64,000 nucleotides of DNA from Bacteroidota bacterium (lineage in GTDB: Bacteria > Bacteroidota > Bacteroidia > Chitinophagales > LD1): NCBI GenBank assembly GCA_016722375.1, contig JADKJG010000008.1:33081-97080 (forward strand), given 5' to 3'. Shown here piece by piece: positions 27,167 to 33,689 of this stretch (position 1 is the stretch's first letter; each line of letters begins with the position of its first letter). The notes under the pieces were generated by a model. That model did not search any database, was not told the origin of the DNA, and saw only the letters and a program-made list of their open reading frames with translations. Position numbers and translations under genes: made by a program.

Positions 27167-29266
27167 ATGTATTCCAACGAAGAGCAAAAGCATCTTAACC
27201 AACTCACGGAGCAACTCATTAAATCCTCAGCGGATTTTTCTTTGAAGGAAATAATTGAGTCGCTGCGATATGTCATCAACTATCATGACTGGAGATATTA
27301 TGTCTTGAGCGAACCTCTCATTACCGATTACGATTACGATCAGCTTTTCAAAACTTTAAAAAAACTCGAAACAGAAAACCCGGAACTCACCACTCCCGAT
27401 TCTCCGACGCAGCGTGTCGCTCGGGCTTTGACCGATGAATTTCAATCAGTGAATCATCTCGTCTCGATGTTGTCGCTGGATAACTCTTACAATGTTGAAG
27501 ATCTGAATGAGTTCGATAACCGGGTGAAAGGTTTGACTGGAACAACACAAGTAGAATATTGCGTAGAGCCGAAGTTTGACGGGGCGAGTATTGCTTTGGT
27601 TTACGAAAACGATTTGCTGATACGTGCTGCCACGCGCGGTGATGGAGCGGTGGGCGAAGACATCACCAACAATGCAATGGCTCTAGCTTCTATTCCTTTG
27701 TCGGCTGCTTTTTCCAAGCACGGGATTTATAAAATTGAAATACGCGGTGAAGTGATCATTCAGCGCGATGTGTTTGTGAAGATGAACGAAGAGCGCGCCA
27801 AGAGAGGAGAAAAGACTTTTCAAAATCCACGCAACACCGCCGCCGGTTCGCTGCGCATCAAAGACCCCGCCGAGGTGCGCACTCGCAACCTCGAAGCCAT
27901 TTTATATCACATCAGTTTTGCGGAGGATAAGAACGGCAACAATCTCCTTGCCGGGAAATTAGAATCACATTATCACTGTATCGAGGTGCTGTATCAATGC
28001 GGATTCAAAACTCCGATACGCGAATTGAAAGTGTGCAAAGACATTTCCGAAGCGCAGGCATTTATTGAGACTTGGGATACCAAGCGCCTAGATTTTAAAA
28101 TTGATACCGATGGCATGGTCATCAAGGTGAATGATTTGAAGATGCAGCAGCAATGCGGCAACACTTCGCACCATCCACGCTGGGCTATGGCCTATAAGTT
28201 TCAGGCAAAGCAGGCACAATCGAAATTGCTCCATGTAGAGTTTCAGGTGGGAAGAACCGGTGCCATCACACCGGTGGCGAAGATAGAACCGGTGCCGTTG
28301 GCGGGGGTTACCATTGCCTCTGTTTCGTTGCACAACGAAGATTTTATTCTGGAGAAAGACATACGCATCAACGACACGGTGATTGTAGAGCGCGCCGGTG
28401 AAGTGATTCCTTATATCGTGGGCGTTGTGGCTGACTTACGCGATGGAAATGAAAAGAAGATTGACTTTCCGCGTCAATGCCCTTCCTGCAATGAAGATTT
28501 AATCAAGCCGGAAGAGGAAGCTATATGGCGTTGCGACAATGCCGAGTGCCCCGCACAAGTAGAAGAGCGAATGATTCATTTTGTTTCCAAGGATGCGATG
28601 GATATTGAAGAGATAGGAGCGAAGAGCGTCATCGAGTTTATCCAAAAGGGAATCGTGAAAAAAATTGAAGACCTCTATCGCCTGCCTTATGAGGCGATTC
28701 AGACTTATGATGGCTGGGGAGAAAAATCGGTGGAGAAACTGAAGAAGGGAATTGAAGATTCTAAAGACCGTCCGCTTTGGCGATTGCTCAATGCGCTTGG
28801 TGTGCGCCATGTGGGGGTGACCACTTCCAAAGATTTGACTTCACACATCAAAAGTATTTTCGACCTCGCCAAATTGAGCCTCGAGGATTTGACGAACATA
28901 GAAGGTATTGGCCCGAAAGTAGCGCAGAGTATTCAGGACTTCTTTCATACCGATGCCAATGTAGAATTGCTTCGCTCGCTGAAAGAACTGGGCGTGAACA
29001 CCGACAACCGTCCGCAAGATGCCACTGCCAAAAACAATAAACTGGAAGGCAAAACATTTCTCTTCACCGGCTCGCTGCAACAATTCAATCGCGACCGCGC
29101 CAAACAAATGGTAGAAGAAAACGGAGGCAAACTATTAAGCGGGGTGAGCGCCAACCTCAACTACCTCGTGACCGGTGCCGATGCCGGAAGCAAACTATCT
29201 AAGGCGAAGAAGATTCCTTCTATTCAGATTTTGACTGAGGAGGAGTTTTTGAAGTTGATTGAATAA
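27167..29266 (+). CDS. ligA: NAD-dependent DNA ligase
   Basis: 699 aa with adenylation motif KFDGASI, a Zn-finger (CPSCNEDL...CDNAECPAQ), HhH motifs and a C-terminal BRCT. Confidence 0.97.
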   Translation: MYSNEEQKHLNQLTEQLIKSSADFSLKEIIESLRYVINYHDWRYYVLSEPLITDYDYDQLFKTLKKLETENPELTTPDSPTQRVARALTDEFQSVNHLVSMLSLDNSYNVEDLNEFDNRVKGLTGTTQVEYCVEPKFDGASIALVYENDLLIRAATRGDGAVGEDITNNAMALASIPLSAAFSKHGIYKIEIRGEVIIQRDVFVKMNEERAKRGEKTFQNPRNTAAGSLRIKDPAEVRTRNLEAILYHISFAEDKNGNNLLAGKLESHYHCIEVLYQCGFKTPIRELKVCKDISEAQAFIETWDTKRLDFKIDTDGMVIKVNDLKMQQQCGNTSHHPRWAMAYKFQAKQAQSKLLHVEFQVGRTGAITPVAKIEPVPLAGVTIASVSLHNEDFILEKDIRINDTVIVERAGEVIPYIVGVVADLRDGNEKKIDFPRQCPSCNEDLIKPEEEAIWRCDNAECPAQVEERMIHFVSKDAMDIEEIGAKSVIEFIQKGIVKKIEDLYRLPYEAIQTYDGWGEKSVEKLKKGIEDSKDRPLWRLLNALGVRHVGVTTSKDLTSHIKSIFDLAKLSLEDLTNIEGIGPKVAQSIQDFFHTDANVELLRSLKELGVNTDNRPQDATAKNNKLEGKTFLFTGSLQQFNRDRAKQMVEENGGKLLSGVSANLNYLVTGADAGSKLSKAKKIPSIQILTEEEFLKLIE

Positions 29267-29321
29267 TTAGCTGTGAGCTATTAGATTTTAGAAATTAGAT
29301 TGGGACGATACATATCCTGCC

Positions 29322-29765
29322 TTACTCAAATGATTGAATAAGATTGGAAGCCATTTTCATATTTGAGTTATAGCTGTCTAAATTGTCAATTTGAAAATTT
29401 TCACCATCCCAATTTTGTAAAATATTTCGGAGTTGTCCCAAGAAGGCGATCGATGAAACCGCAACGTAATGCCCTTTCACAACCTGACCAGCGCCAATCA
29501 ATTCCAGCTTGCTGATAATTTTTCTAATATCATCAAACGTTCTTCCATATTCGGCGAGCAAATGATTTGTGGGCCTGTCGTTAGCTAATAATGTCAGCAA
29601 TTGTTCAATATACACCTCTCGCTTATTTAAAGTCTTTCCTTGAGTCATACTTTTAATTGTTTGACTCAAAATTTCACTTTCGTCGAAATGCTTTCGATTG
29701 GATTCAGCAGCAATCTTGGATAAAAGTCTCGATTTTTTAAAGAAAAACATTAACGATCTTATCAT
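29322..29765 (-). CDS. hypothetical protein (island gene, downstream of the cyclase-like gene)
   Basis: 147-aa AT-rich ORF, predicted mostly helical. No TM segment, no signal peptide and no recognisable cNMP-binding motif. Confidence 0.5.
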   Translation of the reverse strand: MIRSLMFFFKKSRLLSKIAAESNRKHFDESEILSQTIKSMTQGKTLNKREVYIEQLLTLLANDRPTNHLLAEYGRTFDDIRKIISKLELIGAGQVVKGHYVAVSSIAFLGQLRNILQNWDGENFQIDNLDSYNSNMKMASNLIQSFE

Positions 29766-29913
29766 CTAATTAAGCATGTCCTATTAAATAGTATCTAATA
29801 CATCGAGGTTACACAAAATAAGAAAAATTGCAGGCCATTGTCGGTGACGTTTGCACTGCTATTGTTTTTTTAAACCTAAACGATACGCATGTATAAACTT
29901 CATTTTTCTATGA

Positions 29914-30750
29914 TTAAATTTTTTGAAAAGCGATTGTTCCAATTGTTTCTTTTGGTTTCGTTTTTTGATCGTTGAGATACCAAGTCAGAACATCCAAAAG
30001 CCATTCATATTTTTCTTTGGCGTGGGAGTCATTTTTAGCCTCCATTAACTTAATCTGAATTTTACAAAAGTTTATACCACGACTTACGAAACCTTTATAA
30101 ACCTGATCGGCATCAAGATTTTCGTAACCTATATTTAACTCCTTTTCAAAACCGGTTGGATTTAGAAAATACACCCCCTTTGTATCCATTAACAAGCTTT
30201 TGCTGATCGCCTTATTGACGAGATCACCTCGCAGCTGTAGATTATTTTTTACTTTTTCAATTAATGCTTCAGCAATTACTATCCTTGGGTAGATTGCTTT
30301 CTTAGTTTCTAACTCATAGGCATCTGCTAAGGCTGGAGAAAAAATCATTTTCTCATCAGAATAATCATCCCCAAAAGATATCCCGCCTCGGATTGGAAAT
30401 TCATTATCAAGCATTATAGAAAAATAGGCGCGAGCAAACAGAATGCAGTTTGTAAAGGCATCGCCAAAGGATAATTCTGAACCCTCCTGATATGAAAATG
30501 ATGCATAAAGATTGTCGGAAAATAATTTGTATGATGTATTTACTTCGAGTTTAGCCTGGTCCAGTGTATCCTTAAATAAATTAAGGGTATTTATTCCTTG
30601 ATCAAGAGCCTCTATTAATTTTTTTAAGGAGTAGTCACCTTCATGGACGGAGTTATCTAAAATGCTTTTGAAACCTAAAATGTCAGCGTGAAGAACTATA
30701 GCTTTCCGTAAAGCTCCCTTTGAGCCCATATATTTCCTTTTGATTATCAA
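29914..30750 (-). CDS. class III nucleotidyl cyclase-like (CHD fold) protein with an unknown C-terminal extension
   Basis: 278 aa. Ordered motifs are AIVLHADILGFKS (metal Asp, cf. F.DI.GFT), YKLFSDNLYASF (second Asp, cf. K.IGD..MA.F), FPIRGGISFGD (cf. RIGIH.G) and SPALADAYELE (cf. G..VN.A.R.E). Confidence 0.5.
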   Translation of the reverse strand: MIIKRKYMGSKGALRKAIVLHADILGFKSILDNSVHEGDYSLKKLIEALDQGINTLNLFKDTLDQAKLEVNTSYKLFSDNLYASFSYQEGSELSFGDAFTNCILFARAYFSIMLDNEFPIRGGISFGDDYSDEKMIFSPALADAYELETKKAIYPRIVIAEALIEKVKNNLQLRGDLVNKAISKSLLMDTKGVYFLNPTGFEKELNIGYENLDADQVYKGFVSRGINFCKIQIKLMEAKNDSHAKEKYEWLLDVLTWYLNDQKTKPKETIGTIAFQKI

Positions 30751-30803
30751 TCATTCCAAAGAAACCAAAATTAAGTTCTTCACTGGATTAAACTTATAAT
30801 CCT

Positions 30804-31350
30804 CCCCATTCGCCCCCAAATCAACGCGCTTCCACCAGCGCCAAACGCGTTTATGGCTCAGCTCAATGCGGTAATAGTAGAGATTTCGCCTTGGTTGGTG
30901 ATTACCTTTCCAATATTAATATAAGAACCAGCGCCTGTTTGCCGCAGGCAGGTCAACAACCATCTGTTTATTCCTGTTGGTGAAACCAACACCAACGGGG
31001 CGAAGAAAAATTACTTCCCATCCTGATTGATTGAGCCGCTGGTTTGATTAAAACAGCGGAGGTTTTGATTAGAAAAGCGGATGGTGTGATTGATAAAGCA
31101 AATGCTGTGATTAAGATAGCGGAAGATATGATTATGAATGCCGCTCTTATGATTAAGAAAGCGGCATTCTTGATTAATATAGCGAATGCTTTAATCACTA
31201 TAGCGGCTACTATGATCAAGATAGCGAAAGATGTAACCGATATAACGGCTGATTTGATTGATATAGCGGGGAAATTGATTAAGAATCGGGGGATTATTAT
31301 TGATATTCGGGGGAAAATGATTGATATTCCGGGGATTATTGTTGATAATC
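30804..31350. repeat. composite 21-bp phased array: ACGCG-word head, then the GATT word
   Basis: The head has ACGCG-like anchors at 30824, 30845 and 30866. GATT anchors then fall at 31025, 31046, 31067, 31088, 31109, 31130, 31151, 31172, 31193, 31214, 31235, 31256 and 31277, and after a 25+17 nt slip at 31319. Confidence 0.85.
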
Positions 31351-31526
31351 GTTTGTGGCAAAGGTGTTTATGAGCATAGTGCCCAAATTAGATAAAATAG
31401 AAAGTAGAGAGGAGATTTGACAACTTTCAAAAAGTTCTGCATCATTTCTTCCTTGATTTTAAGAAAGGCTCTTTCGGTTTTTTCATTTGCCTTTTCGCTG
31501 ATTCCGGATAAGTCAAAAATTATAAT

Positions 31527-31955
31527 TTAGGATTTAATGGTTTTAAGAGGGTTTTGACCCTTATCATGCAATTCCCCTATTTCATCTACTGTCAAATTTG
31601 AGATTCTTTCTACTTCCATTTTCTCATTCTCATCACAATCTATATGCCCAGCAAATACCTTGTTTTGTTTTATCCAATCGAGATGCCATGAATCTTCCCA
31701 ATACCTTGTGCAAATAGTGAAGTCAGTTGAATAATTTCTTTTTTCATCATAGAACAATCCATTCTCAACAAGTTCGTCAATATCAAATTCATCTGGATTC
31801 CATCTTGAAATGGAGAATATTTGATTATCCTCTTGATTGAAAGGCTCATTTTGGGTGATGTACTTTTCCCGGAACGCCTCAATTCCTCCAATATACTTGC
31901 TTGCTATCGCCTTCTTATCAACAACAAGATTTGAGGGGTGTAGGTAGATTGGCAT
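31527..31955 (-). CDS. hypothetical protein (island gene between the two arrays)
   Basis: 142-aa intact AT-rich ORF, acidic and Trp-rich (RYWEDSWHLDWIKQ). No family recognised. Confidence 0.5.
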   Translation of the reverse strand: MPIYLHPSNLVVDKKAIASKYIGGIEAFREKYITQNEPFNQEDNQIFSISRWNPDEFDIDELVENGLFYDEKRNYSTDFTICTRYWEDSWHLDWIKQNKVFAGHIDCDENEKMEVERISNLTVDEIGELHDKGQNPLKTIKS

Positions 31956-32056
31956 TTAGGGAATTTATTTTTTCTACTTCTGCGCTATTCTCAGCCGTGG
32001 TTGGCGTTTAGCATTCCATAAAAATAAAATTATTGCATACTTCACCAACCATCACA

Positions 32057-32410
32057 CCCCATTTCCCCCCCCAAATCAACGCACTTCCACCACCGCTAAG
32101 CGCGTTGATGGCTCAGCGCAATGCGTTATTGGCGGAAAGTAGCGTGCTACTGGCTAAATGTAACGCGTTAAAAATGCGGTGACAACGCGCTAACGGCTCC
32201 GCGCAACGCGCTATCGGCTGAGCTAAACGTGTTACCACAGGAGTTAAACGCACTACTGGCGGAAATCAACGCACTTGCACCAGCCGTAAGTGCGCTTAAA
32301 TTGAAAATCAACGCGCTTGCCTCGGCCATAAGTGCGCTTAAATTCAAAATAAGCGCTCTTAAATCAAAAATAAGCGCGCTGAAAGGGAAAATTAGCCGAT
32401 TTATCCCCGC
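32057..32410. repeat. 21-bp phased array (ACGCG/GCGCT word)
   Basis: Sixteen anchors: 32079, 32100, 32121, 32142, 32163, 32185, 32206, 32227, 32248, 32269, 32290, 32311, 32332, 32353, 32374 and 32395. The head (32057-32137) is about 85 percent identical by eye to 30804-30884. Confidence 0.9.
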
Positions 32411-32594
32411 GGGGCTTCCTTTTTCAAAACAATTAAAAGAAGAAAAGAACCTCTAAAGGAATCCTATGGACTTGCGGCAGTAAATCAAAGGCCGGCAGGT
32501 TGGGAAATTTCTCCCAATCCTCAAAAATTTTCCCTTTAGTTTCCTCCCGTAAAACAAAAACCCCTCTTTCATAGGAGAAAGAAGGGTTTATTTG

Positions 32595-32667
32595 TGGTGT
32601 GGGAGGGAATTGAACCCCCGACACATAGATTTTCAGTCTATTGCTCTACCAACTGAGCTACCGCACC
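32595..32667 (-). tRNA. tRNA-Phe (GAA)
   Basis: The 73-nt cloverleaf was read by hand: acceptor GGTGCGG/CCACACC (one C-A mismatch), D arm GCTC-AGTTGGTA-GAGC, anticodon stem ATAGA/TCTAT with loop CTGAAAA, T arm GGGGG-TTCAATT-CCCTC and discriminator A. CCA is not encoded. Confidence 0.9.
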
Positions 32668-32718
32668 AATTTGAGGTCGGCAAAAGTAAATATTTCCGGT
32701 TCTTTGCCAAGCTCCTAC

Positions 32719-33689
32719 TCAGTTTGATTCGAGAATTTTTATCTGATATTTTTTATGATCCCGATTGGTCAATCGAGCTTCACGCAACCAAGGGTTCAAC
32801 ATTTTGATATGCTTGTACTTTAATCCATAGTTAGCGGCAAAATCAGCAATATTCAGAATGGGGGTATCCACGTCAACCACTTTGAATCTATAAGGTTGGT
32901 ACAAATCCTCTGGCCTTATATAGAAACCAGCCTTCTCTGGATTAGAGAAAATAATTTTCAAGGCCAACATCCGAAATATATATCTTGAGGTTTCCTGATT
33001 AAAATACATATCGTAATAATGGTTGGTCCTTTGGTCCTTCACTCGTTCCAGCATACCCGGAATCCCAAGATTATAAGAGGCGGCGGCAAGAGTCCAATTT
33101 CCTAATTTTTCATTGGCGCTTTTCAAGTAGTTGCAAGCGGCTATAGTAGATTTCTCTATGTGATATCGTTCATCTACTTCGGAGTTCAACTCTAGATCGT
33201 AAGATTTAGCGGTGGGTTTCATAAACTGCCAATATCCGGAGGCACCCGCAGGGGACACATCTTGACGAAAGCCACTTTCTATCAAAGCGAGGTATTTGAA
33301 ATCGGTGGGCACATCCTGCTCAATCAATATTTTTTCTATTTCATCAAAATGACGATTGGCCATTCGCATATTTAGCAAGGTATTGGAATGCCAATAAACA
33401 TTTACGTTCAACTCCCTGTCCAGCCGCTCCTTGACCTCTGGGTCTTCCAGCGGTACTCGTTCGCCCGCAACTGCAACTCCCCTTCTATGTGTATTGGATA
33501 CACCTTGTTGGATGAATCAATAACATCTGTCCATTGGATATAAGGACACTCACCTTTTGTGCGCTCAAAAATATTGACCGGTTTATTTAAACCGGCCAGA
33601 TTGTTCCATAGAATTGCGGAAGAGGTGATGCCCAGTACCAAAAACAAACCGATAAATACCGGAGCACGATATTTTTTAGGGAATTCCAC
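32719..33689 (-). pseudogene. membrane-anchored lytic transglycosylase (SLT/MltD-like) split by a frameshift near 33465-33510
   Basis: ORF 33408..33689 gives the N-terminal TM anchor. The frame of ORF 32719..33411 is open upstream and reads AGERVPLEDPEVKERLDRELNVNVYWHSNT. The SLT catalytic region is LIESGFRQDVSPAGASGYWQFM. Confidence 0.8.

Follow-up and report, generated by a model that had tools for sequence, protein, structure and literature searches.

The window analyzed here is a stretch of 64,000 nucleotides, C8:33081-97080 of a 17-contig assembly (3.55 Mb, 42.7% GC) of an uncultured Chitinophagales bacterium from activated sludge. Our subject is the 3.3-kb interval between ligA and tRNA-Phe, which holds three orphan genes and two arrays of short repeats; positions refer to the window unless a contig is named. 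The left boundary is ligA (27167-29266, plus strand), an open reading frame (ORF) of 699 amino acids (aa) for the NAD-dependent DNA ligase. The right boundary is tRNA-Phe(GAA) on the minus strand (32594-32667), which was called by ARAGORN and scored 71.5 bits with the Rfam tRNA model. Its 3' end faces the interval. Between the two lies the tRNA-Phe terminator, a hairpin of 13 pairs followed by a T run (32558-32589, minus strand), and variable DNA starts beyond it, near 32557. All three genes are on the minus strand: p147 (29322-29765; 147 aa), which is convergent with ligA, p278 (29914-30750; 278 aa) and p142 (31527-31955; 142 aa). Tandem Repeats Finder (TRF) delimits two arrays of 21-bp units on the plus strand, each with about 16 phased units. 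The body of array 1 (31030-31373; unit TGATTAAGATAGCGGnnnnnn) has a conserved 3' tail, and array 2 (32057-32400; unit nnTnAACGCGCTnnn...) opens with a 72-bp head. A truncated copy of this head, itself 72 bp long, is found at 30804-30875 (plus strand; 86-89% identity to 32057-32128, direct orientation), 55-75 bp upstream of the p278 start, and p142 lies between the two head copies. Besides the three orphans and frames born from the arrays the interval contains no ORF of 50 aa or more, and an Rfam scan of 29000-33000 returned the tRNA only. For the two array-born ORFs, Pfam, NCBIfam and PADLOC gave nothing but coiled-coil noise. In all, 51% of the interval is coding and 23-27% is array. Both of its junctions are reproduced, with zero differences, by Logan contigs from four independent sludge metagenome studies.

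The three genes stand out by their composition. Their GC content is 34.9% (p147), 35.4% (p278) and 35.9% (p142), compared to the genome mean of 42.7%, and each ranks among the lowest 2.5-3.9% of 2649 crude gene calls and, by GC at third codon positions, among the lowest 4-10%. The block from 29322 to 30750 belongs to the lowest 1% of the 1.5-kb windows of the genome. For comparison, ligA has 46.7% GC (86th percentile) and the lytic transglycosylase gene on the other side of the tRNA 39.5%. The arrays have 42-50% GC and thereby bring the interval as a whole to 37.8%, which is within the lowest 4% of 3.3-kb windows. Segments below 36% GC number 49 in the genome, and that of the interval is among the smallest. 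An earlier, sequence-only reading of this DNA had described an AT-rich island abutting the 3' end of a minus-strand tRNA-Phe, about half of it arrays and its three genes more AT-rich than ligA or the lytic transglycosylase gene and devoid of a housekeeping identity. The position at the tRNA and the AT-richness of the genes are as described, and none of the three proteins has a match in Pfam, NCBIfam or PADLOC. AT-richness is a property of the genes and not of the arrays, however, and the share of the arrays had been overestimated.

The interval was compared with genomes of the same GTDB genus, termed congeners, of which the closest has a LigA of 77% identity. Orthologs of ligA, 69-77% identical, are present in 30 out of 30 congeners searched. 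p147 was detected in none of 39 congeners, p142 in a single one of the 39 (45% identity) and p278 in six out of 24 (21-46% identity). Moreover, no two of the three families are adjacent in any homolog context that we fetched. Of 15 congeners, 13 retain the block consisting of tRNA-Phe, the lytic transglycosylase gene, p174 and ppiD. Past the 3' end of tRNA-Phe the DNA differs in each congener compared, and none of 15 relatives with the conserved tRNA-Phe block holds p147, p278 or p142 there. Were the interval core genome that only seems unusual in composition, the same three genes would be expected at this place in all relatives. Such a view could appeal to the lack of mobility genes and to the sequence being identical in the four metagenome studies with no empty site, but the genes are absent at the homologous places in the 15-20 congeners examined and nearly absent from the 39 congener genomes, and we give it almost no credence. 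The word accessory, which the sequence-only reading had used, is therefore appropriate for genes that are absent or rare in 39 congeners.

The two flanks of the interval are variable across the genus, each in its own way. In this genus the tRNA-Phe 3' end functions as an attachment site: in one congener (G018) a tyrosine integrase with Phage_integrase, SAM_5 and Arm-DNA-bind_5 domains lies directly beside tRNA-Phe, and a second tyrosine integrase is found at the tRNA-Phe of another (G015), together with a 4.7-kb element bounded by a perfect 38-bp direct repeat of the tRNA 3' end plus 15 nt. The G015 element (L079 2261-6964) is intact and carries a 418-aa tyrosine integrase gene and five small orphan genes. 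In a third congener (G046) a Fic-domain protein is encoded past the tRNA-Phe 3' end. The ligA 3' flank is likewise a variable slot in congeners. Downstream of ligA, synteny with this genome is found in none of 20 congeners, and the first gene after ligA changes from one to another: G019 has a ThsB-type TIR protein there, G021 a DUF6036/AbiEii-like nucleotidyltransferase, G004 and G012 have orphans, and G043 has a 30%-identical paralog of p278. Since this flank is variable and holds the paralog in G043, the p147-p278 half of the interval may belong to the ligA side. In the genome under study these variable regions, the ligA 3' and the tRNA-Phe 3' flank, abut.

A tRNA 3' end, atypical composition, patchy occurrence and accessory cargo are all features of tRNA-linked genomic islands, of which the G015 element at the same tRNA is a textbook example. 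Unlike such islands, the interval has no integrase, judged by the ORF list and Pfam, and no attachment (att) repeat. The longest match to the tRNA 3' end anywhere in the window is 11 nt long and lies inside ligA (E 0.7), whereas the positive control, G015, yields its perfect 38-nt repeat; the absence of both integrase and repeat had already been noted from the sequence. A further difference is that the interval looks like a mosaic of separately distributed genes, half of which may belong to the ligA-flank hot spot. It could nevertheless be a single decayed integrative island, that is, one element that brought in the three genes together at tRNA-Phe and was later stripped of its integrase and distal att, after which a rearrangement brought ligA alongside. 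The position at the tRNA, the integrase elements of congeners at the same site, one of them with intact att repeats, and the equally low GC of the three genes would fit this scenario. It is at odds with the absence of any integrase fragment and of any tRNA-end repeat beyond 11 nt, with three genes that never travel together elsewhere, and with a ligA flank that is itself variable and accommodates a p278 paralog in G043. We consider it unlikely.

The reading that we favor, and hold to be probable, is that the interval is an immobile, species-specific accessory patch in which two recurrent gene-gain hot spots of the genus abut. One would be the tRNA-Phe 3' flank, with its tyrosine-integrase attachment site proven in a congener, and the other the variable slot at the ligA 3' flank. 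The content of the patch would be a mosaic of three unrelated, separately distributed and solitary low-GC genes, which are probably of horizontal origin. Most plausibly, they would be remnants of mobile elements, or 'morons' that such elements carried as single-gene cargo, and would act in conflicts between phage and host or between elements. The notion of one island, as put forward in the sequence-only reading, finds no support in genes that are never neighbours elsewhere and come with neither integrase nor att repeat. In keeping with phage morons and the orphans of defence islands, the genes are solitary and AT-rich, p278 is preceded by a promoter-like box and has its family on viral contigs, and the p147 and p142 families occur among integrase, toxin-antitoxin and nuclease genes. 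The difference is that there is no prophage here.

Several points speak against this reading. Because there is no mobility gene and no att scar, the horizontal origin rests solely on composition and patchy distribution. The gains can neither be dated nor be demonstrated as separate events, because the nearest genomes are distant (LigA identity at most 77%). An empty-site strain, or a junction that skips the interval, was not found in the Logan contigs of the four studies. The p278 paralog adjoining ligA in G043 could mean that p278 is an old, fast-evolving resident gene instead. Finally, a role in conflict, while plausible, amounts to guilt by association. Seen as an island, the locus reflects ordinary genome plasticity rather than any novel system of defence, and it documents the tRNA-Phe and ligA 3' flanks as gene-gain hot spots in an uncultured sludge Chitinophagales genus. 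It is useful chiefly because it points to three uncharacterised families in mobile or defence-rich DNA, the clearest of which is the cyclase-fold family of p278.

The real start of p278 is probably the ATG at 30729, which gives a protein of 271 aa, because its homologs begin at the position of M8. Its AlphaFold2 model, based on a 23-sequence alignment, has a predicted local distance difference test (pLDDT) score of 89.4 and shows a minimal class III nucleotidyl-cyclase fold with a C-terminal helical extension. In a Foldseek search of the PDB the top 50 hits are all catalytic domains of class III adenylyl or guanylyl cyclases (E 1.6e-5 to 9e-3), and the target-normalised template modelling score against isolated catalytic domains is 0.5-0.68. 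Thus, the label 'cyclase-like' that the 278-aa protein had been given from its sequence holds at the level of the fold. Invariant in the family are D16 (hADILGF), S71-D72 (FSDN), R114-G115 (RGGISxG), E141, P148-R149 and K240, the last of which is part of a conserved C-terminal helical hairpin together with Y241 and W243. A weak profile match to Pseudomonas aeruginosa CyaB (E 1.6) puts D16 and D72 on the metal-binding aspartates and R114 on the hairpin arginine. If, as this match suggests, both metal-binding aspartates and this arginine are kept, p278 would most likely act as a dimer that performs two-metal nucleotidyl transfer or cyclisation on a nucleoside triphosphate.

With PycC of the Pycsar system and with the class III cyclases Ma1120, Rv1900c and CyaB, p278 has in common the fold and, as far as the weak CyaB match can be trusted, the FxDIxGF, FSD and RGGIxxG motifs at the two aspartates and the arginine; it is also a small, stand-alone protein, with a family linked to mobile elements. 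The differences are the missing Pfam and PADLOC matches, the extra C-terminal helical hairpin and the Asn...Arg pair, which seems to be absent. Two of our observations count against the enzymatic side of the favored reading. As far as the order of the motifs tells, the class III transition-state pair Asn...Arg appears to be replaced in p278 (L134, Y138). The Pfam domain Guanylate_cyc (PF00211) gives no match to p278, even at E≤1. For these two reasons, an enzymatic activity of p278 is no more than putative.

The close family of p278 is small and confined to Bacteroidota, with 47 proteins among 5.8 billion searched and six loci in 185,579 species genomes. Beyond it, p278 matches phrog_23933 with an E-value of 1.1e-23 (residues 16-255 on profile positions 5-217 of 240), and PHROG 23933 consists of phage proteins whose function is uncharacterised. 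Solitary relatives with 25-33% identity are present on 25 IMG/VR contigs, some of them near integrases. A tblastn search of GenBank phages with p278 gave no match, though PHROG and IMG/VR hold relatives, and BFVD returned only weak palm-domain or cyclase matches. The family, which is carried mainly by phages, prophages and a few Bacteroidota, is thus shared with phages and recognised by neither Pfam nor PADLOC, and we found no description of this cyclase-fold family in the literature.

Three arrangements of p278 relatives in other genomes are of note. On two unrelated viral contigs (L088 4924-6642; L103 4961-6720) the gene for a ParA-like ATPase overlaps the start of the p278-like gene, and the two may form a two-gene module. 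In G009 (L008 6075-7659) two paralogs are arranged in tandem, the stop of one overlapping the start of the next, an arrangement suggestive of a heterodimer. In G002 (L010 4252-7001) and G014 (L011 5295-7745) a relative directly follows the gene for a 540-645-aa Ser/Thr kinase in what looks like an operon, with an FHA protein gene nearby. Speculatively, and in our estimation with the probabilities against it, PHROG 23933 and its Bacteroidota relatives would together be an unrecognised stand-alone enzyme of phage-host conflict, active in nucleotide signalling or in the modification of nucleotides and built on a class III scaffold that lacks the Asn/Arg pair and has gained the C-terminal hairpin. 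It would serve as a one-gene exclusion or counter-defence module on phages, prophages and hot-spot patches, and in some lineages would have a partner such as the ParA-like ATPase or the Ser/Thr kinase.

On the minus strand between 29200 and 32700 the pattern TAnnTTTG occurs three times only. One match (30773-30766), with the sequence TAATTTTG, precedes p278 and is a candidate Bacteroidetes-type -7 promoter box according to the published consensus; another lies 14 nt before tRNA-Phe. The p278 start region at 30742-30758 (GATTATCAATCATT) is the inverted complement of the array-1 unit core (AATGATTGATA; 31082-31096 and 31316-31329), which may be due to chance.

p147 is a solitary orphan with 36 homologs of at most 77% identity, all of about 147 aa and with a conserved N-terminus. 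Its AlphaFold2 model (pLDDT 88) is all-alpha; Foldseek found nothing below E 3 in the PDB, and a profile search of PDB sequences was without result. The homologs are solitary as well, and their neighbours vary; among them are IS110 with a PLD-like nuclease (PLDc_2) and NucS_C, an AAA_15/21 ATPase, a pair of PIN toxins and, in other cases, housekeeping genes. A conserved small partner upstream of p147 was considered and rejected, since the two candidates are unrelated. p142, also a solitary orphan, has eight close homologs, and a profile search extends these to 205 clusters, while a profile search of PDB sequences was again without result. In two Peptidase_M50 proteins the p142 domain is N-terminal. 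Homologs of p142 adjoin an integrase, or lie between HipBA/Cas1-Cas2 and WYL/PDDEXK genes. Within a HipBA toxin-antitoxin locus on another Bacteroidota metagenome contig we observed long arrays of a 14-bp unit (AATTATCCATTATC; 11-22 copies; L081 3885-4186 and L082 1186-1624).

No known defence system is present in the interval. The suggestion of a defence function in the sequence-only reading draws what plausibility it has from the defence, toxin-antitoxin or phage surroundings of homologs; the PADLOC check of the three proteins was empty, and there is no conserved partner gene. One form of the idea would be a coherent, Pycsar-like signalling defence, in which p278 would make a cyclic nucleotide on infection and p147, p142 or both would be effectors. 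The cyclase fold of p278, the presence of its family on phages and prophages, and the defence-rich neighbourhoods of p147 and p142 homologs are compatible with this idea. What makes it very unlikely, besides the PADLOC result, is the nature of the would-be effectors, since p147 is all-alpha and in neither it nor p142 can an effector domain of the cyclic-nucleotide-binding, TIR or transmembrane kind be recognised; Pycsar systems, in contrast, have an adjacent effector that combines a cyclic-nucleotide-binding domain with a transmembrane or TIR module, of which there is none beside p278. The gene arrangement argues in the same direction: p147 is 148 bp away from p278, a repeat array stands between p278 and p142, and the neighbours of p278 homologs differ everywhere. 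A search for p147-like or p142-like genes beside p278 homologs ended in rejection, with none in the contexts examined.

The 21-bp arrays, which the sequence-only reading had counted as content of the island, are not peculiar to the interval. Genome-wide, TRF detects 187 arrays with a period of 21, 42, 63 or 84, which add up to 37 kb, or about 1% of the genome, at roughly one per 19 kb. Nearly all are intergenic or covered only by array-born ORFs; they consist of many unrelated unit sequences, and their flanks have normal GC. The congener loci have far fewer such arrays than this genome. For array 1 there are 13 matches in this genome, with 73-85% identity, and none in 39 congeners; all its copies stay in exact 21-nt register and have the conserved 3' tail in common. 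Heads of the array-2 type recur at C10:5230-5389 and at C7:~120190. Because there are 187 such arrays and 13 array-1 matches throughout the genome, we conclude that the arrays are resident repeats and not cargo of an island. They represent a repeat class that fills intergenic DNA all over the genome. In one sequencing run (X11) exactly one 21-nt unit of array 1 is missing (31296), indicating a unit-number polymorphism in the population.

The arrays might still be a working part of the locus, either as a regulatory scaffold or protein-docking platform for p278 and p142, or as genes for small heptad-repeat peptides. In support of this, the same 72-bp head precedes p278 and p142 at a distance of 55-100 bp, and is found upstream of a divergent gene on C10 as well. 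The register is exact in all copies, and the changes between array-1 copies, distributed over the three codon positions as 119:109:158 (68 synonymous versus 112 non-synonymous), show a mild excess at the third position and of synonymous changes. The coding test nevertheless reveals an in-frame stop in four out of nine array-1 copies. Moreover, the arrays occupy 187 places with normal flank GC and no preferred gene orientation, and long 21-bp arrays do not occur beside p278 relatives on viral contigs. We regard a working role as quite improbable.

Two further ideas about the arrays were dismissed. They do not mark AT-rich DNA in general, given the normal GC of their flanks; of the 49 low-GC segments, 18 have an array at a distance of 1 kb or less, compared to about 11 expected, which is a weak excess. 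Neither do they travel with p278, for which there was a hint in three of five congener loci and nothing on viral contigs. Among known repeats the arrays resemble dispersed minisatellites and elements akin to miniature inverted-repeat transposable elements, such as BrickBuilt of Porphyromonas gingivalis and the cyanobacterial short tandemly repeated repetitive (STRR) heptamers, in that they occur between genes in many copies, each built from a variable number of short units and with a head and a tail that are conserved. Unlike these, they keep a strict 21-bp phase across diverged copies, and many unrelated units coexist in one genome. We found no description of them in the literature, and they merit study as a genome-wide feature rather than as the content of any island.

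A short dispersed motif of about 60 bp (…TTTATGGAATGCTAAACGCCAACCACGGC…, minus strand) lies upstream of p142 (31985-32050). According to blastn matches on C3, C6, C7, C8 and C9 it has about five copies in the genome, the others being at C3:103533, C6:306900, C7:120138 and C9:~55200, and several copies are located upstream of a gene start, beside an array, or both.

Finally, beyond tRNA-Phe, the lytic transglycosylase gene is split in this assembly into ORFs of 93 and 230 aa. Contigs of two independent sludge runs (X1, X5) have an extra A after 33468, inside this gene, and the frameshift at 33468 probably reflects either a mistake in the assembly or variation between strains.

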